Of a DNA stretch of 32,000 bases, positions 3,818-24,625 are shown piece after piece. The position numbers and the translations under genes were made by a program. The stretch covers positions 60,001 through 92,000 of the forward strand of contig JAXLZO010000001.1 of the NCBI GenBank assembly GCA_046350815.1, written 5' to 3'. Numbering within the stretch: the first letter of the stretch is position 1; each line of letters begins with the position of its first letter. The notes beneath the pieces are model-generated. The model was not told the DNA's origin. It made no database searches and saw only the letters and a list, made by a program, of their open reading frames with translations. This DNA is from Candidatus Saccharimonadota bacterium (lineage in GTDB: Bacteria; Patescibacteriota; Gracilibacteria; BD1-5; UBA2023).

Positions 3818-4510
3818 ATGATCAGTAAAACTACCTATAGGAAAAAATCACGAATTTGAGATGCAAAAATAAGAGAAATTGTGAAATATTTTTCTCTGGA
3901 TTTTACTTCAGATAAAACAGCGGTATTAACAGGTCTCAATCCAAAAACAACACAGGATTGGTATAGATATATCAGAAAGGCGATAGCCTTTCTCTGTGAG
4001 AGAGAAAAGAATGAAATATGGACTGGAAATGTTGAGATAGATGAGAGTTACTTCTGACCAACAAGAGTCCGATGAAAGAGAGGAAGGTGAGCTGGTATGA
4101 AGACAATAGTCTTTGGTTTACTCAAAAGAAACTGAAAAGTATATACTGAGATAGTTCCTGATGTAAAAGCAAGGACTCTCGTGCCAATCATTCGATGAAA
4201 ACTTCGTATAGAAGAGTCTGAGATTAACAGTGATGGATGGTGAGCTTATGATGGGCTTGTAGATATTGGATATGAGAAACACTACCGTGTTCATCACGGA
4301 GCAAATGAATTTGCAAGATGAACTCAACACATTAATTGAATAGAGTCATTTTGGAGTTATACCAAAAGAAGACTCTCTCAATTCAATGGAATCAAGAAAG
4401 TCTACTTCTACTATTTTTTGAAAGAATCTGAATTCAGATATAATTGTCGTATTCAATGAAAAGATATTTATAAGGAAGTGCTAAAGTTACTTCGTCAATA
4501 TAACCCGTAA
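3818..4510 (+). CDS. IS1595-family (ISXO2-like DDE) transposase, 230 aa
   Basis: Table-25 reading gives ...VEIDESYFGPTRVRGKRGRGAGMKTIVFGLLKRNGKVYTEIVPDVKARTLVPII...SDGWGAYDGL...HHGANEFARGTQHINGIESFWSYTKRRL...YFLKESEFRYN, the DDE_Tnp_IS1595 signature. Ten in-frame TGA. Stop TAA 4508-4510. Confidence 0.85.
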
Positions 4511-4641: not shown

Positions 4642-4719
4642 GGCACCATGGCAGAGTGGTCAATTGCAAGGGCCTGCAAAGCTCTAAAGTCATCGGTTCA
4701 AATCCGATTGGTGCCTCCA
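4642..4719 (+). tRNA. tRNA-Cys: tRNA-Cys (anticodon GCA), CCA encoded
   Basis: Acceptor GGCACCA/TGGTGCC. D arm GCAG/TTGC. Anticodon arm AGGGC-CTGCAAA-GCTCT (U33, GCA, A37). T arm ATCGG-TTCAAAT-CCGAT. Discriminator U73 at 4716, followed by CCA. Confidence 0.9.
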
Positions 4720-5774: not shown

Positions 5775-7340
5775 ATGTATTCAAACTTTGTATCACTCCA
5801 TGACATTCTTACCAATCAATCCATCGATAATACTAATATCAGAAGCTGGATTGAGAATAATATCGAAAAGGAAGCAACACTCCAAACCCTCCTTGCGGAG
5901 ATTCAAAATGACCCAAAATATTTTCATATATTCTTGGAATATGCGGAGATAAGTATTCGCAAGTGGAACTATGTACACCCTCAGATACTTGGTTGTATTC
6001 GCTATCTTTGTCTTCATTTTCGAGAGCTCTCCAATCACAATAGCTACATTACTGACTTCTTGAACAGCTATCAATGAGATGCTCTCTTTGCAAACAAGCA
6101 GACACTTGAGTGTTTTACTGGGCATGATCCAGAAAAACTCGATGAACATCTCCTCTATCGATTAGTGAGTTATTTTATAAGCTATTATCACAAAAATCTT
6201 CTTCTTCAAGAAAAAACTCCATTTTTTCAAAAAGCGCTTGAGACGGTCGCCAAGATTGCTCCAGAGAGAATTCATGATCTGATCGAGTATAGAATTGAAA
6301 TCTTATTTGAGTACTTTAACTACTCTCTTAAGAGTGGTTATGATTTCTATTTTTCCATCACAAAAACATGAGGAAAGAGGGTATTATCATCAGACAAAGA
6401 GCTTGCATATCTCAAGCGATTGGGTGAAGATGCCATTTTTTCAGCTATCAAAAGCATGGATTTTGATCTCTTTACTTTTTTTATCGATCGATTTGCCGAT
6501 GCAACCGGAAGCAATGGAATCCATTTCCTCGGATTTCAAGACCTTCTCTCACTCGAAAATGAAAAAAGATTTTATCTCTCTATTATCTATAAAACACTCC
6601 TATTTGATCGTAGAGAATCACATGACTTCCTACGATTCGTGCTCAATCAAATGAACAAAAGAAAAGGGAAAATCTTCATTGAAAATCGATTTGGAGGACT
6701 AGAAAATGTTCTGAGCCTTATGAGAGACTCATGAATATCAATATTTGAGAGTATTCCAGAACTCACAGAATTCGTCAGCATTGTTGATGCAAACGAGACC
6801 TACATATGGAGTTTTTGTCAGTACATTGATCTTTTTTATGATCAAATAACACTGAAATCAGAGAGGAATATTGTTGAATTGCTACACCATACCAACATAC
6901 AACATACAAAATTTAAGAAGAAGCTCTACGATTTTATCACAGTGCAGCTTCTACGATACCATGGACTCCGATCTTTTTTAGCAATTCAGGAACAATACAA
7001 TCTCATCGAAAATCCTGATGATGCGAGAGATATAAAGAAAATGCTCCTTGATACAAGTATATACCATCTCAAACGACAATCATACACCACTCTCGAAAAA
7101 TATCTCTCACTCTTATTCACCTCATTTCAGCTTCATAGTTTTGAAATGGAATCACTTATGACGAACATATCTCAATGAAATGGCAAAATGAAGTATATCC
7201 TGATGCGCGTGGTGAAAAAAAGAGGCATAGGTGAGATGAGTCCATATTCATACAGAAGCATCAAGGAAAAATGTTTCTTTCAGTCACATTTTCCACTCAG
7301 CATATATCATATGATCAAAAGAATAACGGAGAAAAAATAG
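5775..7340 (+). CDS. Hypothetical protein (521 aa), apparently helical, no recognised domain
   Basis: ORF-track pieces 5775-6077, 6165-6371, 6420-6734 and 6879-7178 share one frame. They are separated only by TGA, with no TAA/TAG until 7338-7340. Confidence 0.6.
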
Positions 7341-7369
7341 ACCTATTCATCCTATCTAACTCACTTATT

Positions 7370-7891
7370 ATGCAAGAAATCGAAGCAAAAATTCTAGGCA
7401 TTAACCCAGTTGAACTCGAGTCAAAACTCACAGCGATTGGAGCACAACGAATCATAAAAAGAACAATGAAAAATACCTTCTTTGAGAATACTGAAGGTAT
7501 TTTTCTCAGACTTCGCCAAGATGGAGATAGATATATTCTCACCCGCAAGATTATGACAGTAAGTGAGAATATTGGTATCAAATCAGCACAAGAGCTTGAG
7601 ACAGATGTATCAGATCCCGCTGCACTGATCCAAATACTTGAGAGCATCGGATTTAGCGAGTGAAGAACTCTCTCAAAGATACGAACCACCTATACCCTTG
7701 GTGACAATATTCACATAGAGATCGATGAATACCCGAATATTCCACCACTTCTCGAGATCGAGGCACCGAGCGAAGATATTATTCTTTCCCTTGCCAAACA
7801 ACTTGGATACACTCAATCTGATCTCTCCAGTCTCTCAACACTCGGACTGGAAGAACACTACGGAGTCACTCTTCAAGAAACCAACCGATAA
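7370..7891 (+). CDS. CYTH-domain protein (class IV adenylate cyclase / triphosphatase family)
   Basis: Starts MQEIEAKIL (ExExK signature). Also LRLRQDG, ILTRK, ELETDV and IEIDEYPNIPPLLEIE. One in-frame TGA. Stop TAA 7889-7891. Confidence 0.7.
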
Positions 7892-9133
7892 TTATCTAGC
7901 ATTGTCGGGTATTTTATAACGAGAAGGAGGAAGAGTGGTAAGTGCAAAAATGAAAATAATCCAATGACTCACACTCGCAATATTCAGACTGAAAAAAAGA
8001 AGAAACAAAATCATCACTTCACGCTGCCAAGGAGCCTGCATATTGCAAAATGAACGCACAAGAATGAAGAGGAAAACAGTAAATCAAACAACTCAAAAAC
8101 TGAAGAATATATCGAGGAAAATATTGTGAAAACTATGAATGGATCATCCTTCTTGGATATATGGAAGCAGGGATGCGACAGGATGGTCAGAGAGAACGAG
8201 ATCCAACGTATCTGGTCAATGTCCTATAAAGAAATGAAGTGAACTATCACTCGAGAGTACTATTCCCGCTTGCCACAAGTCAAACCTCGTCATGAAATTT
8301 CACACCTTTCATGGAAACAAAGAAATACCTACAAAAAAAGAGACAAAGAGAAGAACACTAGCACTATATCCAATCCAACGCTGATCTGAACGCAACATAT
8401 GATATCATCGATAGATGCCATATCAGACAGATAAGACAATCGCCGTCAGGCTCTGTGTGAGGAGAAGCAAGCTCAAGAGCATACATACAATAATGCATCG
8501 ATACCACGGAGAGAACGAAGAAGTAAAAACTATTGGAATCAAGAGAAGAGCATAGCCTGCAAGATAAGCAGAATTTCCAAAAGTAGCAAATACTGGATGT
8601 ACAAAAGCTGTCAAAGTATAGTTATCAAAGAGTGGATCAAGACGAAAGTATTGGATGATACTATAGAGAAAAATAGGTGGAATAGTATGTATCGTCATCC
8701 TCATAATTCTTTCATACATTGCTGGACGAAGAATATATTGCAAAATTGATCCAAAAAGAAAAAGTCACAAGAAGAACACCCCACCTTGAAGCCGTTCAGA
8801 TGATCCAATGAGTGCACCTATTGAATAGGCACTCAGTCATAGAGATAATAAAATACTCAAAGGAATAAGGAGGAAAATTGGTTTTATATGCATCTTTTTT
8901 TCTCCAAATATCATTTGCGAAACAACCAACAAACAAATACAAAGCGTAAGAGCAAGAAAAAGTACCACCTTTACGCTCTCATACGAATAAATAGGATAGA
9001 GTGGTAAATAAACGCCAAATAAATCAGTGATATGAGCAAATACCAGCGGAATAGAAACGTAAGTAACAAGAAAAATAACTCCGATGGTCTTCTCAAGAAA
9101 GGATAGTGGTGCGAGTGTATTGGGAGAGTTCAT
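7892..9133 (-). CDS. O-antigen ligase (Wzy_C) family multi-pass membrane protein
   Basis: Pieces 8837-9133 and 8423-8743 plus the downstream sequence form one frame through about 12 TGA. Contains ATFGNSAYLAGYALL, GHGPDT and IHSFHNIFLDIFFSFGVVG. Stop TAA 7892-7894 abuts the CYTH stop. Confidence 0.65.
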
Positions 9134-9314: not shown

Positions 9315-9599
9315 CTAAGATGAGGGTCTATTTGGCAGATTTTGCTTTGCCTCATCCTTGATCCGATTGAGTGCTTCACTCAGCACAGCGAGACGCTTGT
9401 TATGAGTTGAAGTTTTCAACACTTCATTTTTGAAGACAGTATTGATCTTCTGGCGAACAGATTGCCACTGCTTATCCTTCCAAAGACTCACAATATCCCA
9501 AAGCATTTGATGATTTGCATCGCTCAAATGCTCAAGATCCTTTTCAAGTTCTTCGAGAATATTGGCCAAGGTGACACCATCTTGTTGTGTCTCATACAT
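9315..9599 (-). CDS. Small hypothetical protein (~94 aa), helical, TGA-free
   Basis: MYETQQDGVTLANILEELEKDLEHL... AGGAG lies 7 nt upstream of ATG 9599 (alternative ATG at 9605). Stop TAG. GC is visibly above the local background. Confidence 0.55.
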   Translation of the reverse strand: MYETQQDGVTLANILEELEKDLEHLSDANHQMLWDIVSLWKDKQWQSVRQKINTVFKNEVLKTSTHNKRLAVLSEALNRIKDEAKQNLPNRPSS

Positions 9600-11541: not shown

Positions 11542-11985
11542 TTAGTCTTTGGTGTATGTCGTTATAACAGTTGAGCCCTTCTGTGCTTGAATCTTCACAA
11601 GGATATCATGCCACAAGTAAGCACCCTCTATTTGGGACACATCATGCTGCAATCCATCAATCCGATTGGGTACACCATTCATGTTATTATCATAAACAGT
11701 AATTCTCTGACCGATAGAGTGTTCTGTATTTACTACAAACCCCTCGGACATATCTTTTTCGGATTTTGAAAAAGATATTTTATCGCCATGTATGACCTGA
11801 CAAACACGGAACGGAGTACAATCCTTGTCGGGTGTGACATGAAAATTTGCTCGAATCTCCTCTATCATACGAACATTATCCGCAATGGTGCTATATACAG
11901 GATCTGTGGGTTCTACAACAAAACCCGCAACCACGATACTTGGAATCATAGCCATAACAGCTAAGATAGCAGCATGTATTTTCAT
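11542..11985 (-). CDS. Secreted hypothetical protein (147 aa), paralog of 12084-12584
   Basis: Signal peptide MKIHAAILAVMAMIPSIVVA|GF. Two Cys. Shares ITVYDNNMNGVPNRIDGL...YLWHDILVKI with its neighbour. SD-like AGAGGAAG lies 6 nt upstream of the ATG. TGA-free. Confidence 0.65.
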   Translation of the reverse strand: MKIHAAILAVMAMIPSIVVAGFVVEPTDPVYSTIADNVRMIEEIRANFHVTPDKDCTPFRVCQVIHGDKISFSKSEKDMSEGFVVNTEHSIGQRITVYDNNMNGVPNRIDGLQHDVSQIEGAYLWHDILVKIQAQKGSTVITTYTKD

Positions 11986-12083: not shown

Positions 12084-12584
12084 CTAGATAGCTCCTAGCT
12101 CTTTGGAAGATAGCGGTTGAGTAGACAGACGATCTACTATACTTTTAAGAATCGCATGATAGAAGAGAATTCCATCTAATTCAGATGATTCATTGTTCAA
12201 ACCATCAATTTCTTGAGGTATTCCGTCCATGTTATCATTAAAAATAGTGATAACACCACCTGTTTTTGCTTGTTTATGTTTGATAGCGATAGCAAAGCTT
12301 TGTGGAGATTCATCGCTTGGGGCAATGAAACCTATAGAAGCCTCAGCATCAGCAAGATCAATCATACGGCAAACATCTGCAGCCACACCATCACTACCAT
12401 ATTGCAATGTACAACCATCATCAATACGAGGCTGGAGATTATTTTGAATCTCCATGATCATGCTCAAATTTTGTGCAATGATCTGGCCTGGTGGAACATT
12501 GCTCTGCAGCGGTTCTGCAGCAAATCCCGCAAAAACAATCACCGGACAGAAAAACAATATCATAGCTACAATCAGACTTTTCAT
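12084..12584 (-). CDS. Secreted hypothetical protein (166 aa), paralog of 11542-11985
   Basis: Signal peptide MKSLIVAMILFFCPVIVFA|GF. Two Cys. Contains ITIFNDNMDGIPQEIDGL...LFYHAILKSI. AGGAG lies 7 nt upstream of the ATG. TGA-free. Confidence 0.65.
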   Translation of the reverse strand: MKSLIVAMILFFCPVIVFAGFAAEPLQSNVPPGQIIAQNLSMIMEIQNNLQPRIDDGCTLQYGSDGVAADVCRMIDLADAEASIGFIAPSDESPQSFAIAIKHKQAKTGGVITIFNDNMDGIPQEIDGLNNESSELDGILFYHAILKSIVDRLSTQPLSSKELGAI

Positions 12585-12658: not shown

Positions 12659-13375
12659 TTATTCCCCGTCTCCACTAATCAATGTACCAAAATCAAGCTC
12701 TACGTCACTCTGAGCAAACTGGTCGATATCTTCAATACGACAGACAAATATAGGTATATGTTCATCTCGGGCAAGTGCAAACGCTGATTGATCAAATATT
12801 CTCAAATTCTTCTCAATAGCTGTATCATAGCTCACTCGATTATAACGTTTTGCATCGCTATGTTTGACTGGATCACGATCATAGACCCCATCGACCTTCG
12901 TACCTTTCACCACAACATTACAATCCAGCTCGAGACCACGAAGCACTGCTGCTGAATCGGTCGTGAAGAATGGATTGCCAGTGCCACCGACACAAATAAT
13001 GGCTCGTCCTTTTTCAAGATGGCGTAGTGCTCTTCGTCGAATAAATGGCTCTGCAACCTTGTCCACTTCAATACCTGACATGATACGAGTTTGACAGCCA
13101 GCCTTCTCGATCGCATCAGAGAGAGCCACGCCGTTGATAATAGTTGCCATCATTCCCATATAATCAGCACTTGCTCGATCGATTCACTTTGCTGCTCAGC
13201 TCACTCCACGGAAAATATTCCCTCATCCTATGACGATCACGAGTTGGTTACCAGAATGTGCAATTTTTGCAACTTTTGCAGAGAGATCATGAAGAAAATC
13301 TACATCAATGCCACCATCTTGCCTACCTTGCAGTGCTTCACCAGAGAGTTTAAGGAGGAGTCGTTTGATTTTCAT
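12659..13375 (-). CDS. pyrH: UMP kinase
   Basis: MKIKRLLLKLSGEAL...LVIVIG-G-GNIFRG...GTGNPFFTTDSAAVLRG...VDGVYDRDP. Joins ORF pieces 13223-13444 and 12659-13159 through TGA. Confidence 0.9.
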
Positions 13376-15744: not shown

Positions 15745-16242
15745 CTATAGCATTGGCTGTGGGGATTCATCCAACTTATCCACAAAAAGTATCCCATCAA
15801 GATGATCAATCTCATGCATCACCACACGAGCCGCAAATCCAGTAAGTTTGATTTTCTGAGATTTAAAATTCTCATCAAGATAGTGAAGTACGATCCAAGT
15901 AGAGCGAACAACGATTCATTTCTCTCACGGCACCGAGAAGCATGCCTCTTCTTCACGACACATTTCATTACTAGCTTCCACAATACATGGATTGATCATA
16001 CCAGCAACTCGACGAATTTCATATCCATCCGGCGTTTCAGTACCGAGCGCACAAGCAATAACTCGGAGATTCACACCGGTTTGAGGGGCAGCAAGACCAA
16101 CGGCGGTATCGTTAGATTTGACCCAATCGACAAGTTCTCTTGCGAGTATTTGAGCTTGCTTTTGTGTTGTTGAATCAACAAGAGTGCTTACCACACGCAA
16201 TATTTGATTATCGCGACCGGTTTGGATAGAACGATTCATCAT
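15745..16242 (-). CDS. def: Peptide deformylase
   Basis: GLAAPQTG, EACFSVPGEKG and HEIDHLDGILF motifs. Two in-frame TGA. Stop TAG 15745-15747. Confidence 0.9.
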
Positions 16243-16279
16243 AGAGAAAAGAGAAGAGTATAAATTATATAAGTAATCA

Positions 16280-16320
16280 AAAAAGCACAAAAGAAAAACA
16301 CTGGACCGAAGTCCAGTGTT
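16280..16320 (-). terminator. Strong terminator (AACACTGGAC-cgaa-GTCCAGTGTT, UUCG loop on the transcript, long T run)
   Basis: 10-bp perfect stem, 27 nt downstream of the stop at 16347. Confidence 0.8.
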
Positions 16321-16346
16321 GGTATCGCACCGCCTCCACGGCACGA

Positions 16347-17669
16347 CTATTTTTGATGATTACGTATGCGGGTAAACTCAGCGATCAAGGCGTCCAGTTG
16401 CACAACCTGATCTTGGGACAACTGTGGTATAGCAGCTGCTTCGATTTCTGCGATTTGAGCCTGCAACTGATTTTGTTGAACACCAGATTGCTCCAGATCC
16501 AAACTCGACTTTTCCACAGCCCCTTGCAGGGTTTGTACTTCTTCACGGGCCGTAAGCAATTGCTGCTCAAGTTCATCGACCTTAGCATGTGCTAAGGTCA
16601 GATTTTGCTGTTGTTGAACAAGGAGGGCTTGAACCTCCCCTTCAAAAAGCTTGGCTTTTTGAAGCTGATCCTGCAGATCATGCAGGATCGGGTCAGCTTC
16701 ACGACTTTTTTGAACCGAGCCGAACAGGGCAGCTGCTAAGCTGTTTGAGAGGCTTGGTGGCGTTGGCTTCTCTTTCACGATATTTTCCTCCTCCGCTACA
16801 GCGGAACCAATAATTCGATCTAATTTCGGCTCATAGTGAACCAATTTGCTAATAGGCTGATCCGCCTCCTCATCAGACGGACCCTCTTCAGCTGCACGGA
16901 TTTCGGCCGCAATCGCTTCAAGAGCAACCACTTCCTCCAGACGAATACCGAGGAGATCTTTATCGATCTTCCCATCGGCTGTAACGAGCCCCTGAATTGT
17001 ACACCAGTGATGGCGACACAACTCCAGATTCTCACCAACCTGTGGAAAAACACTAAGGATCATGCTGTTGACGCCTCGAGTGCACACTTCGCTTTTCAGC
17101 TTTGCATACTCACTCAATGCCACGATGAACCGGCGTGCCAGGGGATGATCAGGATGAGCAACACAATCTTGAGAGATTTCATGTGGCTTACGCTGCATGA
17201 GCTGCTCACGTTCAGCATGAGTGTTGGGTACCCACGTATCACAAAGCAGATCCATAACCTGGTTACTCTTGTTTGTCAGAGCATTCCTGAGGAGTTGTAA
17301 TACCCCTTCATCCCCCCGAAAGAACAGTACTGAATCAGTACGCTCCCCAGCAAGCACCAAAAACTCCGCGGGAGTGGTCTCAGTAGCAATAGTAACTGCA
17401 ACAGGGTTGTTACGATTTACCCAGAGTTTCCCACGCCCATCCTTGGAAGACCGGGCATTCCGAATAACCGTCAGGTCCATCTGCTGCGACCCCGGGATCT
17501 CATCCAGAAGATCGGAAATTTGCTGGTGCAAAAGCCGGTTCTCCTCAAAGAGTTTCCAGAAGAAGTTCCCAATCGCGCGGATTGGGTTTCGAAGTTCGAG
17601 CACGGATCCACTATGCGGACCCACTAACTGCAATTTTTCCCACACTTGTGGGCTTTGCGCTATTCCCAT
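16347..17669 (-). CDS. Hypothetical protein (440 aa): globular N-terminal part, acidic linker, Q/L/E-rich C-terminal coiled coil. GC-rich and TGA-free.
   Basis: Uninterrupted even in the standard code. GGAGG at 17675-17679, 5 nt upstream of ATG 17669. A 100-nt sample counted about 49% GC, against about 37% in the adjacent gene. Has its own promoter and terminator. Confidence 0.75.
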   Translation of the reverse strand: MGIAQSPQVWEKLQLVGPHSGSVLELRNPIRAIGNFFWKLFEENRLLHQQISDLLDEIPGSQQMDLTVIRNARSSKDGRGKLWVNRNNPVAVTIATETTPAEFLVLAGERTDSVLFFRGDEGVLQLLRNALTNKSNQVMDLLCDTWVPNTHAEREQLMQRKPHEISQDCVAHPDHPLARRFIVALSEYAKLKSEVCTRGVNSMILSVFPQVGENLELCRHHWCTIQGLVTADGKIDKDLLGIRLEEVVALEAIAAEIRAAEEGPSDEEADQPISKLVHYEPKLDRIIGSAVAEEENIVKEKPTPPSLSNSLAAALFGSVQKSREADPILHDLQDQLQKAKLFEGEVQALLVQQQQNLTLAHAKVDELEQQLLTAREEVQTLQGAVEKSSLDLEQSGVQQNQLQAQIAEIEAAAIPQLSQDQVVQLDALIAEFTRIRNHQK

Positions 17670-17762
17670 GATTGCCTCCAAGGCGTAATGGTTGTCTTGT
17701 TATAAATCCTGTTGTATGTAAATTACTAAGAGAAAATCCTAGCAACCCACACCAACAAGATC

Positions 17763-17790
17763 ACTATATATAAATATAATTACTTGTCAA
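17763..17790 (-). promoter_or_regulatory. Putative promoter (TTGACA-16-TATAGT)
   Basis: The -35 lies inside the last codons of the upstream 667-aa gene. Predicts an ~85-nt leader for the 440-aa gene. Confidence 0.5.
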
Positions 17791-19783
17791 TATCTTCATG
17801 ATATATTCCTGCATCACGGAGATTTTGAAGATAGAGCTGACATGCTTGCTTTGAGCTTCGCAATGATTTTTGTTTTGATTGAGCGTATTTCTCAACAAGA
17901 GTATAGAGCGATTTGAATGTCTGATAAAAATCCGCCCTGTAGAATAATCCTGGAATATGCGAAAGAGGCGAATCTTCATGCTCAAGTATTTCAAACAGAT
18001 TCTGATTGATTTTATCGGATCGATTGTGTGGATTCATTTGATGATCCTGTTTTCTTAGCAGATAAATCTCTCGCCAAGAAAATTCTGTAGTTTCAGACAA
18101 TATTTTTCCCTCTTCAATTTTTTGAATGAAAAAATAGAGAAAATTGCGCATAGCATCACTCGTTCGACCATCACCTTTGCTGTCATTTTTGTCAAAAGTA
18201 GAACTTATAAACAGCTTTTGGACCATTTTGATGTGTGCAATATATTCTTTCTGTAGATCGGTTAATACCATCGATTCCTCAATATCCAAAGAATCATTAA
18301 AAAGAGAATTCTGGGCAGGATGATGTGGATCACGATTTTTATGGGCCCATTTTCTTTGTTCATCCATGACGTGAAGCTCCTCCTTTAACCTATGAATCAT
18401 CTCCGTTATCTGATGTGCCTCATCTATAATCTGATTAATCACTTGAACCTGTGCTATAGTTTGTTGTTGTTTGTTCTTAAGAATATCAAGATCATGTTCT
18501 ATACCGTCTTCTATAGCTTGAAGATCTGCGAGTGCATGGATTTTCTTTGTTTTTTCCACGCTATGACATCGAACGCGGCGTTTATCCATATTTTTTACGA
18601 TCTTTGCAATTTCGATATCAGTTGAGGTCTTTGTAGATGTTACCAATACATCTACTTCATTCGATACTGGTCACACCATCATCGCATGAGAATGTAGTGG
18701 TAATTTCTGATTAGTATCTCAAATTTGCTCTCTAACAAATGCTTCAGCTTTATTTTGAATATCTTCCCATTCAATCATGGTTTGGAAAAAATCGAGAAAA
18801 AAATGATGATCATGAAGATTATCTGGAATATCCGGAAGATGCTTAATAGAATCTTTGAATGTCTTAATCGAATCACGAAAATATTGCTTTTTAACCGGGT
18901 CAACAATTCTATGATGAAGTACTTTGTATGTATCGATTTTTTTACTAATAGCCACTTCCCTTGCGTGAGCACATACAATCATTTCTTTTATAACCAAAAG
19001 TAATACGGCATCATATGCCCTGGTAAGTAACATGTCACTTACAAAATCGTCACGTTGCTTATCTGAAAGATCATCCCAAAATGGAAGTGGTTGATACGGT
19101 TCTGGTAATTCAGCTGGTTCTGATGTTTCTGATATATCAGACAATTCTCATAATCATTTTTCTCTCTGGCTCCAATGACGCAATTGCTCAAGAGAGTACT
19201 TCATTTGAACGAAATATTTAAACCATTTTTCAAATGTCTCATCAGAAAAATCATTTTTTGGTAATTGATTTTTTTGCCAAATAACACTTTGAAGAGGATC
19301 TCGATGAAAATGAGCCGCAAAACTCAACATCTCTGAGTGGTAAAAAATCTTGGAAAAAACAGATTCATGCGTATCAAAAATAATAAAAAGATAATGATAC
19401 ATGATGAAGCGTAATTCAGCCGATTCTATGTCTCATTCACTATTATCAAGTAAGCCTATCGAGTGAATCGCTCGAAGCGTAAATTCATACCACATACGTA
19501 TCCTTGGACGAAGTCATTCAAGAAACTTATCAAAAGAATGTTGTGAAATCCTCGTAATAGCATCAAGAGACTCCTGTGAAAGTAATCTAGGAGGTAATTT
19601 CTCTTCCTGTCCCTTTGTAGTATCTTGAAGATCATTTTGCTCAAGGATACCATGAGTCTGTTGAGATGTTCCAGATTGGATTTTTTGCCACTGATCAACA
19701 AATTCCCAAAGAGGTATATGGTCATCCGGTATACCTTCTCTTCATGAGAAATCATCAGGCTTTATGAAATTTTGCTGAGACAT
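17780..19783 (-). CDS. Large hypothetical protein (667 aa), no recognised domain
   Basis: Standard-code ORFs 17780-18646, 18719-19144 and 19154-19402, plus upstream sequence to ATG 19783, are all in one frame. They are joined only by 7 TGA codons, with no TAA/TAG over 2004 nt. Starts 13 nt after the pilB stop. Confidence 0.7.
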
Positions 19784-21243: not shown

Positions 21244-21948
21244 TTAATATCAATCCATGAACATAAAAGCAACAACTGGAGTGACCGTTTCGAGACGCAA
21301 AACTCGACTTCCAAGATTGACGCTCAAAGCATCTGGATTTTGATAAAACATCGTCGCTTCTTCTTGACTCCAACCACCTTCAGGACCAATAAAAAGCGTC
21401 ATGCCTTGTTCATCTTCCACATGTTCCACCGCTTCATTTATAGGAATAGTTTGTTCGCTTGTGTGGAGAAAAATACATTTTCCTTTGCTACATTGAGGAA
21501 AATCAGACAACATGGAAAGAGAGACAAGATCGGAACGGCCACATTGCTCAACTGCCTCCATGGCAATCTTCTGAAGTCTTGCAACCTTCTTCTCATCAAG
21601 GTGACGAATTTGAGAATATTTTGATGGAAAAAAAATAAATTCACTCACACCACACTCCACTCATTTTTCTACTATATATTCTAATTTTTCAAATTTATTT
21701 GGAAGAGCTTGAGCTATGCATAGATATTTCTGTGGATTTGCAAGAGTCTTGGTGGTATCAAGAATCGTGTATGTGCATCATTTTCTATCTATAGTATCAA
21801 CAGTGATAATTGACTCGAATCCATTTCACGAGAAAAACAAATATTCTCAACCAACGCGGGCTCGAAGAACACGGGTAATCTGATGATAGAGTGGATGATC
21901 CGATGGAATAAATCAGGACTGAAAATCAGGATAGTACATTCGTTGCAT
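21244..21948 (-). CDS. rsmE: 16S rRNA (uracil1498-N3)-methyltransferase
   Basis: LFIGPEGGWSQEE and LGSRVLRLETV motifs. N-terminal PUA-like part recovered through five TGA. Its ATG lies 1 nt after the murE stop. Confidence 0.75.
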
Positions 21949-21949
21949 A

Positions 21950-23260
21950 TTACTTCTTGATATCAGATTTGTCCATTTCTGCAAGAATTTCTTCAACTAC
22001 CTTTCTATCATTCCACTCAATAGAGCCTTGATTAGTTACCATTACATTCTCAGCTCACTTGCCAGCCAAGAGAATAATATCCCCAGGCTGCGCTCGAGTA
22101 AGTGCTGTTCGGATAGCATCATAACGATGAAATATAACCCAAAAATCTTCTCATTCCTTGCGTGGTATACCTGCTGCCACTTCTGAAATAATCTGGAGTG
22201 GATCTTCAGTATAGTTATCATCCTCGGTGAGGATGATACAATCAGCATATCTATCAACTACTTTTCCCATTTTTGGTCGTTTATCACGATCACGATCACC
22301 CGTGGCACCAAACAAAACGATAAGCTGCGTATCTGGCTTTTTATAGATATGCAGAGTATGAAGCACACTCTCAAGAGAGGCTTCCGTATGAGCATAATCA
22401 ATGTATATTTCGAGTCCACGGTCATTCTCTACCTCTTCCATACGACCATCGAGTGGTTCAAAATTTTCCAGTGTTTTCTTGATACTCTCGGTTGATATGC
22501 TCTGTGAAACAAGTACCGTCACGGCACAGAGCATATTCTCAATATTATATTCTCAGCGAAGTTTGGATGATATGGGTAATGACACAGAGGGCATGCGAAT
22601 TGTAAAATCTACCCCCCTTTCTCGATATGTTATATTTTTTGCTCGTATCTGAGCATTGTCAGCTCGTATTCCATAGGTCATCACTGCATCAGAAACTTCC
22701 CCAGTAAATCTATCTGCTTCTTGCATATCGAGATTCACAACTGAGACTTTTCGCACTCCACTCTTGCGACGAGCGTAGACCAGTGACTTAAAAAGGCGAA
22801 GCTTGGTACGAATATAGTGTTCCATAGTGCCATGCAGATCAAGATGATCTTGGCTAATATTCGTCACCGCAGCCACATCAAAATCAATACCCCAAATTCT
22901 CTGATAGTAAATAGCATGGGAAGATACTTCCAGGACAAGATACTTTACTCCGAGATCTTGAGCCTGCTTGAGAAAACGAACAAGAGTAAATGGATCTGCT
23001 GAGGTCATCTTCGTATTATTTGTCTCCCATACACCACCAAGATAGGTTCGTAGCGTTGAGAACATCGCAACACTCTCACCAGCATCGATGAGTCATTGAG
23101 TGATAAGATTAGTGGTGGTGGTCTTTCATTTTGTCCCCGTAACCCCGATAACAATCATATCTCGAGAAGGGAATCCAGCAGCATATTGAGCAACAACAGC
23201 ACGAGTAAAGTGATAGAACTTTCGAATAGGATTGCGTAATCCAATAAATTTGAATGACAT
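21950..23260 (-). CDS. murE: UDP-N-acetylmuramoyl-L-alanyl-D-glutamate ligase (MurE family), 436 aa
   Basis: GVTGTK-G-KTTTT P-loop (Gly is TGA). DYAHTEASL. GATGDRDRDKRPKMG. LTEDDNYTEDP sits at the position of the DNPR motif. Confidence 0.8.
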
Positions 23261-23935: not shown

Positions 23936-24625
23936 ATGAAAAGTAAACAAAATATTTACGAAAAAATGAACAATTATAGATGGAGGAAAATAGGGTATTT
24001 TCGGTATTTTGTGAAATCTTACCTTATTAAACCTTATATCTTTTTTTCAATATATATCTTAGCAACGTATCTATCATATATTTTTGCAAACTATGATAAT
24101 AACCCATTTCAATATATACATATAGTTATATCTGTGTTGATTTTTCCGATACTCGTATATGGCTTTATGAAAATTGTTTACTTTAAATTTAACATTATTT
24201 CAAAAGAGTATCTAGAGAAAATCATACCGATAAATGATTTTCTTCTAAAAGAAACTCAAAGAGTTTTTTCTCTAAAAAAATATAGTACCGATGAAATCAT
24301 TGAAAAAAGCACTCAAATACAAAAGCATATTTTAAGTTTATCGCGAATACGTAAATATTCCTTTTGGTTTGATACAAATCAAAAGGATCTCGTCGGAAAT
24401 TACATAAAAGAAACTTCAATCTCAATGCTCAATATTTTAAGAGCTCTTCAGAAAAAACTTTGAGAACAAGTTGAAAAAGAGAAGAATATTCTCCAAAGAC
24501 AGCAACTTGAAGTAAAAGAAAATATCACTGGAAATAATTATTTGAATCAAGTATCAGAACTACAATCAAATCGATTAAAAAGACAAATCGAGCAATTTGA
24601 GAAGCTCCAGAGAATTCTTCATTAA
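23936..24625 (+). CDS. Hypothetical membrane protein (229 aa), very AT-rich
   Basis: Two hydrophobic helices (IFFSIYILATYLSYIF and IHIVISVLIFPILVYGF) followed by a helical tail. One TGA. Stop TAA 24623-24625. Confidence 0.55.

Follow-up and report, generated by a model that had tools for sequence, protein, structure and literature searches.

A GC-rich coding region free of the reassigned TGA codon at the pilB-def locus of a code-25 bacterium: composition, divergence and predicted expression signals

The bacterium represented by contig JAXLZO010000001.1 belongs to a code-25 lineage of the Gracilibacteria/Absconditabacteria kind, in which TGA is read as glycine. Within 32,000 nucleotides of this contig (positions 60,001 to 92,000; ‘the window’, meaning the whole stretch that was analysed), one gene between pilB and def, here called the target, is sharply richer in G and C than its neighbours and contains no TGA codon. 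A sequence-only reading of this DNA had offered two explanations: recent acquisition from a standard-code donor, or a specially tuned, highly expressed gene. Three observations add to that reading: the target diverges fast together with the adjacent orphan gene, its synonymous sites have turned over at constant composition, and its coding region holds an excess of mRNA structure. We favour, and give an even chance of being right, the interpretation that the target is a native, lineage-specific, fast-evolving gene, and that selection on its transcript has favoured expression that is both strong and lasting. Read in this way, a native gene with foreign-looking composition, in which the reassigned codon is avoided and the RNA is folded, would be an instance of expression tuning of a known kind. 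The case shows that an abrupt compositional shift limited to a single gene is no proof of foreign DNA when the genome is recoded.

A compositional island confined to one coding region

The two genes on which the argument turns lie side by side, with pilB beyond the orphan on one side and def (15745-16245) on the other:

16347..17669, minus strand: target coding sequence (CDS), ATG to TAG, 440 amino acids (aa); G+C content (GC) 0.497, G at third codon positions (G3) 0.30, no TGA
17780..19783, minus strand: orphan gene of 667 aa, directly after pilB; normal AT-rich composition, 11 TGA codons, identity between relatives co-varying with that of the target

Measured against the 26 other open reading frames (ORFs) of the window (mean GC 0.384, standard deviation 0.038, maximum 0.439), the target lies well outside the local spread in overall GC (z = 3.0), in GC at third positions (GC3; 0.480 vs 0.319±0.037, z = 4.3) and in G3 (against 0.15±0.03, z = 5.4). 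A is depleted at third positions, with C and T near normal; GC at first positions is high (0.66) because the protein is rich in E, Q, A, L and V, and at second positions it is ordinary. In bins of 100 nucleotides (nt), GC passes from 0.29 to 0.47-0.56 and back to 0.27, the steps falling exactly at the ends of the CDS. Both the GC-richness of this gene and the coincidence of the composition step with its borders, proposed in the sequence-only reading, are therefore borne out. ORFs called on the antisense strand inside the CDS were judged spurious on the basis of their low stop-codon content.

That TGA encodes glycine in this genome is indicated by conserved proteins: in UMP kinase (pyrH, 12659-13375) TGA falls on the invariant glycine of the motif GxGNIFRG, and in MurE (21950-23260) on the invariant glycine of GTKxKTT. 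Nearly all window genes are fragmented under translation table 11 and become long ORFs once TGA is read as sense; the target is among the few called full-length by table 11. Reassignment of CGA/CGG to tryptophan has been described for Absconditabacteria and some Gracilibacteria (PMC8629427). It does not apply here, since CGA is plentiful and CGG pairs with CGT, CGC, CGA and AGA at conserved arginines in orthologue alignments of the target, pilB, murE, pyrH and POR; we therefore ruled out CGG as a tryptophan codon.

TGA makes up about 1.4% of codons and 21% of glycine codons in the window. As previously noted from the 440 codons of the target, it is missing there: none of 21 glycine codons is TGA, where about 4-6 would be expected (P = 0.007; 0.002 calculated per codon). 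In the window allele this absence is partly a side-effect, because A-ending codons are lost generally (the GGA share of glycine falls from 34% to 10%). Six roughly independent alleles together contain 26 GGA and no TGA, against a background TGA/(TGA+GGA) of 0.39; by our own calculation 0.61^26 is about 3e-6, and TGA is therefore specifically avoided across alleles.

Distribution and divergence of the target and its orphan neighbour

A homology search recovered 11 target protein clusters of 58-100% identity, and an exhaustive profile search of 1.8 billion representative proteins added one further clade (P0013 and relatives, ~30% identity); a single repeat protein from the latter search was discarded as a spurious match. 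The family is limited to these two clades, both at the pilB-def locus, and the gene order murE, rsmE, pilB, orphan, target, def, POR, HTH gene, pyrH is common to every contig that carries it. Comparison with sibling genomes, suggested by the sequence-only reading, finds the target flanked by orphan and def at every related locus (L001-L013, L018 and L019). L010 and L011 carry a transposase-bearing insertion with three small ORFs between target and def (L010 11794-14429).

The anomaly is shared as widely as the gene. All alleles have a GC of 0.45-0.50 and a GC3 of 0.42-0.48, compared with a GC3 of 0.25-0.38 in neighbouring genes, and all are TGA-free except L008 (GCA_020049755.1, 3531-4838), which has one in-frame TGA where the window clade has tryptophan (TGG, W83) and the P0013 clade leucine. 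This codon, which divides the table-11 call of L008 into pieces of 80 and 315 aa, could reflect a W-to-G change or a sequencing error, or could hint at UGA/UGG ambiguity.

These data bear directly on recent horizontal acquisition from a standard-code bacterium or phage, which we now consider highly improbable. The atypical composition, its sharp borders at the CDS, the lack of TGA and a self-contained layout, in which the gene brings along promoter, Shine-Dalgarno sequence and terminator, would all suit a newly arrived gene, and a sharp shift of GC and codon usage in one gene is what horizontal-transfer islands display. Unlike such islands, the target is syntenic in all relatives, down to 31% identity, has no donor and shows no amelioration: its composition persists through synonymous saturation without drift towards the AT-rich genome. 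No homologue outside the locus was found in any searched collection, including GTDB genomes, IMG/VR and GenBank phages (GTDB holds no close relative of this lineage, its best pilB match being only 43% identical). There are no bounding repeats, integrase or other mobility genes or flanking tRNA at the target borders, the window's tRNA and insertion sequence (IS) element lying 12 kb off. Because orthologues share both composition and synteny, recent transfer is refuted by the criterion that the sequence-only reading itself had set for it.

An assembly chimera, in which a GC-rich foreign fragment would have been joined into an AT-rich contig, is practically negligible as an explanation. The sharp compositional step would fit it, as would a contig (L026; ENA ERZ22160008, 1401 nt) that holds the target gene alone. 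Against it, independent assemblies from JGI, ENA, Logan and NCBI, more than 10 in all, show identical junctions with orphan and def, and the target promoter overlaps the orphan stop codon, so that the misassembly envisaged in the sequence-only reading can be set aside. L026 begins 57 nt before the ATG, within the leader, and stops inside the loop of the terminator hairpin. Such ends could mean that a transcript was assembled, or that the assembly broke at the hairpin and AT-rich flanks; as a sign of high expression L026 is suggestive.

The sequence-only reading had overlooked that no part of the locus evolves faster than target and orphan. When the window, L001 and L010 are compared, the MurE, PilB, POR, Def, PyrH and HTH proteins are 90-96% identical, whereas the target protein is 65% identical between the window and L001 and 31-32% between either and L010; across all relatives its identity spans 31-93%. 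Orphan identity tracks that of the target (72-73% vs L007/L008, 33% vs L010), and divergence runs along the full length of both proteins, the C-terminus of the orphan being its most conserved part. Together, target and orphan make up a hypervariable block, with pilB and def conserved on either side. Strong co-variation of two adjacent genes between otherwise near-identical genomes is also a property of polymorphic toxin-immunity pairs. Such a pair was ruled out by the full-length divergence and by the conserved C-terminus of the orphan, and domain and profile searches found no toxin or immunity domain in either protein; 440 aa is also large for an immunity protein. The possibility that target and orphan are paralogues was rejected after comparison, and Pfam, PHROGs, PADLOC and PDB sequence and profile searches assigned the orphan to no family.

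The ratio of nonsynonymous to synonymous substitution rates (dN/dS) of the target, 0.12-0.33 against 0.02-0.10 in nearly all flank comparisons, identifies it as a real protein-coding gene that evolves fast under net purifying selection. Alleles are separated by a synonymous divergence (dS) of 1.3 or more, where it is not saturated. At four-fold degenerate sites the window and L010 are 26% identical in the target, which we take to be about chance level, compared with 39-67% in flanking genes; the backbone around them, which recombines, therefore looks younger than the allele classes. Since GC3 has remained ~0.15 above that of the genome through one or more complete replacements of the synonymous sites, the composition is no relic but an equilibrium under active maintenance.

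This last point weighs on ancient acquisition, for example of a standard-code phage gene that was domesticated and whose foreign composition was then frozen by constraint. In its favour, the anomaly must date to the common ancestor of the alleles, because all of them share it, and according to PMC10746230, host translation machinery poses no barrier to phages whose hosts include both candidate-phyla-radiation and other bacteria; that such phages would use the standard code is something we infer. Neither IMG/VR, GenBank phages nor BFVD holds a viral homologue, and no PHROG matches. Moreover, with protein and synonymous sites both evolving fast, nothing is frozen, and the composition is actively maintained whatever its origin. 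We consider ancient acquisition unlikely. An island held by selection through complete synonymous turnover is a caution for detectors of horizontal gene transfer, and equally for gene callers applied to code-25 genomes.

The orphan evolves as fast as the target, with a GC of 0.345-0.36 and 11-12 TGA codons; because it is AT-rich and TGA-bearing, the anomaly belongs to the target CDS and is unexplained by fast evolution or recombination-linked conversion. GC-biased gene conversion at a recombination hot spot, with allele exchange driving AT-to-GC fixation, might otherwise be entertained for a locus that is evidently mosaic (dS of pyrH, pilB and rsmE is discordant between the same genome pairs, and P0006 is a chimeric allele). 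It would have to spare the co-varying orphan and to follow the CDS borders, since leader and 3' untranslated region (UTR) stay at 27-29% GC. It would also have to act in a strand- and frame-specific manner, as the excess at sense-strand position 3 is of G and not of C. We regard this explanation as quite unlikely.

Expression signals, mRNA folding and the predicted product

The target is framed by signals that, taken together, are unusual for the window:

17763..17790, minus strand: sigma-70-type promoter, TTGACA-16-TATAGT, consensus score 11/12
17670..17757, minus strand: 5' leader of ~87 nt, counted from the predicted transcription start, with a 5'-terminal hairpin at ~17710-17757
17675..17679, minus strand: Shine-Dalgarno sequence GGAGG, 5 nt before the ATG; the only full GGAGG among 26 gene starts
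16333..16337, minus strand: second GGAGG, in the 3' UTR, ~10 nt past the stop codon and before the terminator
16287..16320, minus strand: intrinsic terminator with 10-bp stem, UUCG loop and U-tract (AACACTGGAC-UUCG-GUCCAGUGUU at 16320-16297)

The anatomy given in the sequence-only reading, namely a promoter embedded in the end of the upstream gene, a leader of ~85 nt, a locally rare GGAGG and a UUCG-loop terminator, is confirmed, each element lying where that reading had put it. The promoter is the sole sigma-70 match of 11/12 or better on either strand of the window, and its -35 box overlaps the final codons and stop of the orphan. It is unchanged in L001 and L007-L009 and takes the form TTGACA-N17-TATAGT in the 31%-identity clade (L010/L013). 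Among alleles of 60-77% identity, promoter, spacer, Shine-Dalgarno sequence and first codons (ATGGG) are invariant; the 31%-identity clade retains ATGGG, and GGAGG is conserved across all allele clades.

The structured elements are kept in another way. The window leader folds at -34.7 kcal/mol (z = -3.2), and the leaders of the window, L001 and L010 all have a long hairpin at the predicted 5' end, of differing sequence. The terminator hairpin is identical in L001 and L009 (the aligned excerpt of L007 ends inside it), and L010 and L013 have a different hairpin and U-run at the same position. Conservation of the expression signals exceeds that of the protein, terminator and 5' hairpin being kept as structures despite their differing sequences.

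The second GGAGG is present in both allele clades, ~10-20 nt past the stop codon (L001 ~9319-9323; L010 ~11445). Table-11 callers take the ATG that follows it as a false start of def. A def reading frame extended through the terminator was considered and rejected, and the stretch is taken as non-coding, because the window and L001 do not agree in its frame with respect to def.

Shine-Dalgarno motifs are otherwise nearly absent: 22 of 26 window gene starts have none, start assignments being approximate. The remaining three Shine-Dalgarno-like motifs (AGGAG, GAGG and AGGA, one each) precede the genes at 12084-12584 and 11542-11985 and, weakly, pilB. Avoidance of TGA is associated with Shine-Dalgarno-led genes in the window, such motifs preceding 3 of 6 TGA-free genes and 1 of 20 others (Fisher p ~0.03, calculated by hand). 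The genes at 11542-11985 and 12084-12584 (minus strand) encode small secreted proteins of 147 and 166 aa with signal-peptide-like N-termini, which are probably paralogous; both are TGA-free, as are their counterparts in L010, and they may belong to the same high-expression class as the target.

Folding of the coding region exceeds what its protein sequence and codon content predict. The mean minimum free energy per 150 nt is -47.0 in the window allele, against -40.7±1.2 in shuffles of synonymous codons (z = -5.4), and the corresponding z values are -4.4 in L001 and -7.1 in L010; for the 24 other window genes, z lies between +2.1 and -3.35 and the native energy between -18 and -37. In an RNAalifold analysis of seven alleles, 220 local pairs were predicted, with 93.8% of cells paired and 25 compensatory pairs against 17±2.4 in shuffles, the structure being derived from the same alignment. 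One hairpin, over LAxAK codons, illustrates the folding, a synonymous TTA...GCT pair becoming TTG...GCC in L018. General selection for folded mRNA is supported by these data; specific conserved helices are unproven.

The target makes 4- to 10-fold heavier use of several codons that the genome seldom employs: CGG makes up 22% of arginine codons (2% locally), GGG 52% of glycine codons (9%) and CTG 29% of leucine codons (7%). These rare G-ending codons fit selection for pairing, since G can form pairs with C as well as with U, or selection for another property. They also raise a further alternative, that the coding region is itself a functional structured RNA, or that rare codons and TGA avoidance make translation dependent on particular tRNAs or conditions, in a manner resembling bldA/TTA control in Streptomyces. 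The excess folding in three divergent alleles, the count of compensatory pairs and the codon enrichment would accord with this alternative. Covariation is, once divergence is considered, no better than in control genes, and an Rfam search gave no match; the L010 clade, for its part, lacks the CGG and GGG enrichment yet keeps the other features. We hold this alternative to be doubtful in both forms.

Under the interpretation that we favour, of a native gene tuned for expression, the target would be a monocistronic unit in which a near-consensus promoter, a stabilising hairpin at the 5' terminus of the transcript, a Shine-Dalgarno sequence, a base-paired coding region and a strong terminator act together. 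The enrichment in G and C (mainly G3) and the avoidance of TGA(Gly) would then follow from selection on the mRNA and its decoding, and neither would be a mark of foreign origin. Precedent comes from S-layer and other major structural genes: passages of PMC8056022 describe strong promoters and mRNAs 6-10 times more stable than average for S-layer genes and, citing Emory et al. 1992, stabilisation of mRNA by 5'-terminal stem-loops. As portrayed there, Bacillus anthracis sap and eag are, like the target, monocistronic, with a very strong promoter, a 5' stem-loop in the leader and a strong terminator; stable mRNA is reported for the S-layer genes, and for the target both abundance and mRNA stability are predictions. 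The combination of strong promoter, 5' stem-loop, strong Shine-Dalgarno sequence, structured body and strong terminator is an established recipe for abundant, long-lived mRNAs in bacteria, those of S-layer genes included (PMC8056022). S-layer proteins and the target product are also both acidic and markedly strain-variable. Unlike S-layer proteins, the target product lacks a signal peptide and any sign of export, Pfam searches show neither an SLH nor another anchoring domain, and it has several cysteines and a putative C-terminal coiled coil.

Several observations sit uneasily with tuning for high expression. The enrichment of genome-rare codons is not predicted by classical translational optimisation; neither the window nor the related loci contain ribosomal-protein or EF-Tu genes whose codon usage might be compared. 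Highly expressed proteins usually evolve slowly, and the target has a dN 5-15 times that of its flanks; its dS, rather than being reduced, equals or exceeds theirs. Fast evolution is uncommon for abundant proteins, with the exception of surface, antigenic and coiled-coil structural ones. The two TGA-free small secreted genes with Shine-Dalgarno-like motifs show no G3 enrichment, the covariation term in control genes is similar to that of the target and the evidence for helices is circular, and the AlphaFold2 model does not settle the fold of the first 140 residues. The second explanation offered by the sequence-only reading, of a tuned and highly expressed gene, consequently stands as supported but unproven: promoter, Shine-Dalgarno sequence, 5' hairpin, terminator and structured mRNA agree with it, and the slow evolution and reduced dS that it would lead one to expect are missing. 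If it is right, this uncultured Gracilibacteria-like lineage may express few genes as strongly as the target, which is, paradoxically, also one of its fastest-evolving, and the target would offer a natural test of how the cost of decoding TGA(Gly) and mRNA structure shape genes after codon reassignment.

The predicted product is an acidic protein of 49 kDa (pI 5.1) with three regions:

16884..17669, minus strand: N-terminal region, residues 1-262; a poorly modelled alpha/beta part, then a helical sub-domain (145-255)
16695..16883, minus strand: acidic, probably disordered linker, residues 263-325 (258-325 in the AlphaFold2 model); segment pI 4.8
16350..16694, minus strand: C-terminal long helix rich in Q, L, A and E, a putative coiled coil, residues 326-440

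Two AlphaFold2 runs reached overall confidence scores (pLDDT) of 55 and 60. In the model based on an alignment of 14 sequences, the helical sub-domain is the only confidently modelled part of the N-terminal region (pLDDT 85-89 at residues 150-250). The linker scores below 50 and varies in length among alleles by insertions and deletions, and long helices at 310-413 and 419-439 score 70-87. The model thus agrees with the layout of N-terminal domain, acidic linker and helical C-terminus first read from the translation, and the protein would begin with a globular part, continue in an acidic linker without fixed structure and end in a coiled coil of ~110 residues. As that reading also had it, no motif is recognisable: Pfam, PHROG, PADLOC and PDB sequence and profile searches with the target and P0013 returned only weak coiled-coil noise (the C-terminal helix matching SMC, keratin, lamin and NEMO coiled coils compositionally), and Foldseek searches of PDB and BFVD with the AlphaFold2 models gave nothing below E = 0.01. 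A candidate Cys/His metal site (C169, H175, C218, H220/221, C223) was rejected, as the cluster, conserved in one clade, is not conserved in the other (P0013).

The N-terminus, MGIAQSPQVWEKLQ, is non-hydrophobic, and no signal peptide was found. The Met-Gly start (17664-17669), including G2, is invariant in all alleles down to ~30% identity, and may reflect methionine excision or initiation context; several alleles have serine or threonine at position 6, and the resemblance of Met-Gly to the eukaryotic N-myristoylation motif is probably a coincidence.

Crescentin and FilP/Scy are cytoplasmic, lineage-specific proteins in which a head domain is joined to a heptad-rich rod and sequence diverges fast. 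As modelled, the target product resembles them in each of these respects (head and helical rod, likely cytoplasmic location, restriction to one lineage, fast divergence); it differs in that the coiled coil makes up only about a quarter of the protein and in having no sequence or fold match to them. Judging from architecture and co-variation, the likeliest role of the product is that of an abundant scaffold or cytoskeleton-like protein of the cytoplasm that acts with the orphan. Lying near the pilus ATPase gene pilB, the target and its equally variable orphan partner are a sensible first target in the search for host-interaction or cell-architecture proteins of episymbionts.

Yet another possibility is that the unit is a cassette built to be read, after transfer of DNA or RNA, by a standard-code bacterium on which this episymbiotic or predatory lineage lives as on a host or prey. 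Agrobacterium T-DNA genes are built in this way for expression in the recipient and not in the carrier. Expression in such a recipient would be possible for the target because it combines freedom from TGA in essentially all alleles with a consensus promoter, a canonical Shine-Dalgarno sequence, a terminator and codon usage foreign to its own genome, so that, as in T-DNA genes, signals and coding are compatible with a translation system other than the carrier's; an arms race with the host would in that case account for how rapidly the gene diversifies. Unlike T-DNA, the target has no border repeats and no transfer machinery linked to it, and we know of no DNA delivery to prey in these bacteria. 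We consider such a cassette very unlikely.

Neighbouring genes and other variation in the locus

The closest named relative found for any window protein is an FKBP lipoprotein from a Candidatus Gracilibacteria metagenome-assembled genome, at 38% identity. Elsewhere in the locus, RsmE (21244-21948) is only 65-68% identical between the window and L001 or L010, whereas L001 and L010 are 92% identical to each other and the adjacent murE and pilB products are 93-96% identical; rsmE is thus a second divergent or recombined segment.

In L001 the orphan (5880-7893) is called as three overlapping ORFs of 268, 129 and 297 aa, compared with a single ORF in the window, L008 and L010, which suggests frameshifts or assembly errors. 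The same locus encodes, in a lineage-specific insertion between POR and the HTH gene (L001 11516-14380), a 954-aa protein with a prepilin-type N-methylation motif and RCC1/WD40 repeats, whose gene contains 29 TGA codons.

A 229-aa ORF of 26% GC without a family match (23936-24625, plus strand) lies between dcd and ham1, where L010 and L001 have no counterpart; recent insertion is more plausible for this ORF than for the target gene. An IS1595/ISXO2-like transposase gene with 10 TGA codons (3818-4510) adjoins tRNA-Cys GCA (4642-4719), the sole tRNA of the window, and a 28.5-kb public contig of the same organism appears, from its contig coordinates, to stop near this transposase/tRNA-Cys pair.

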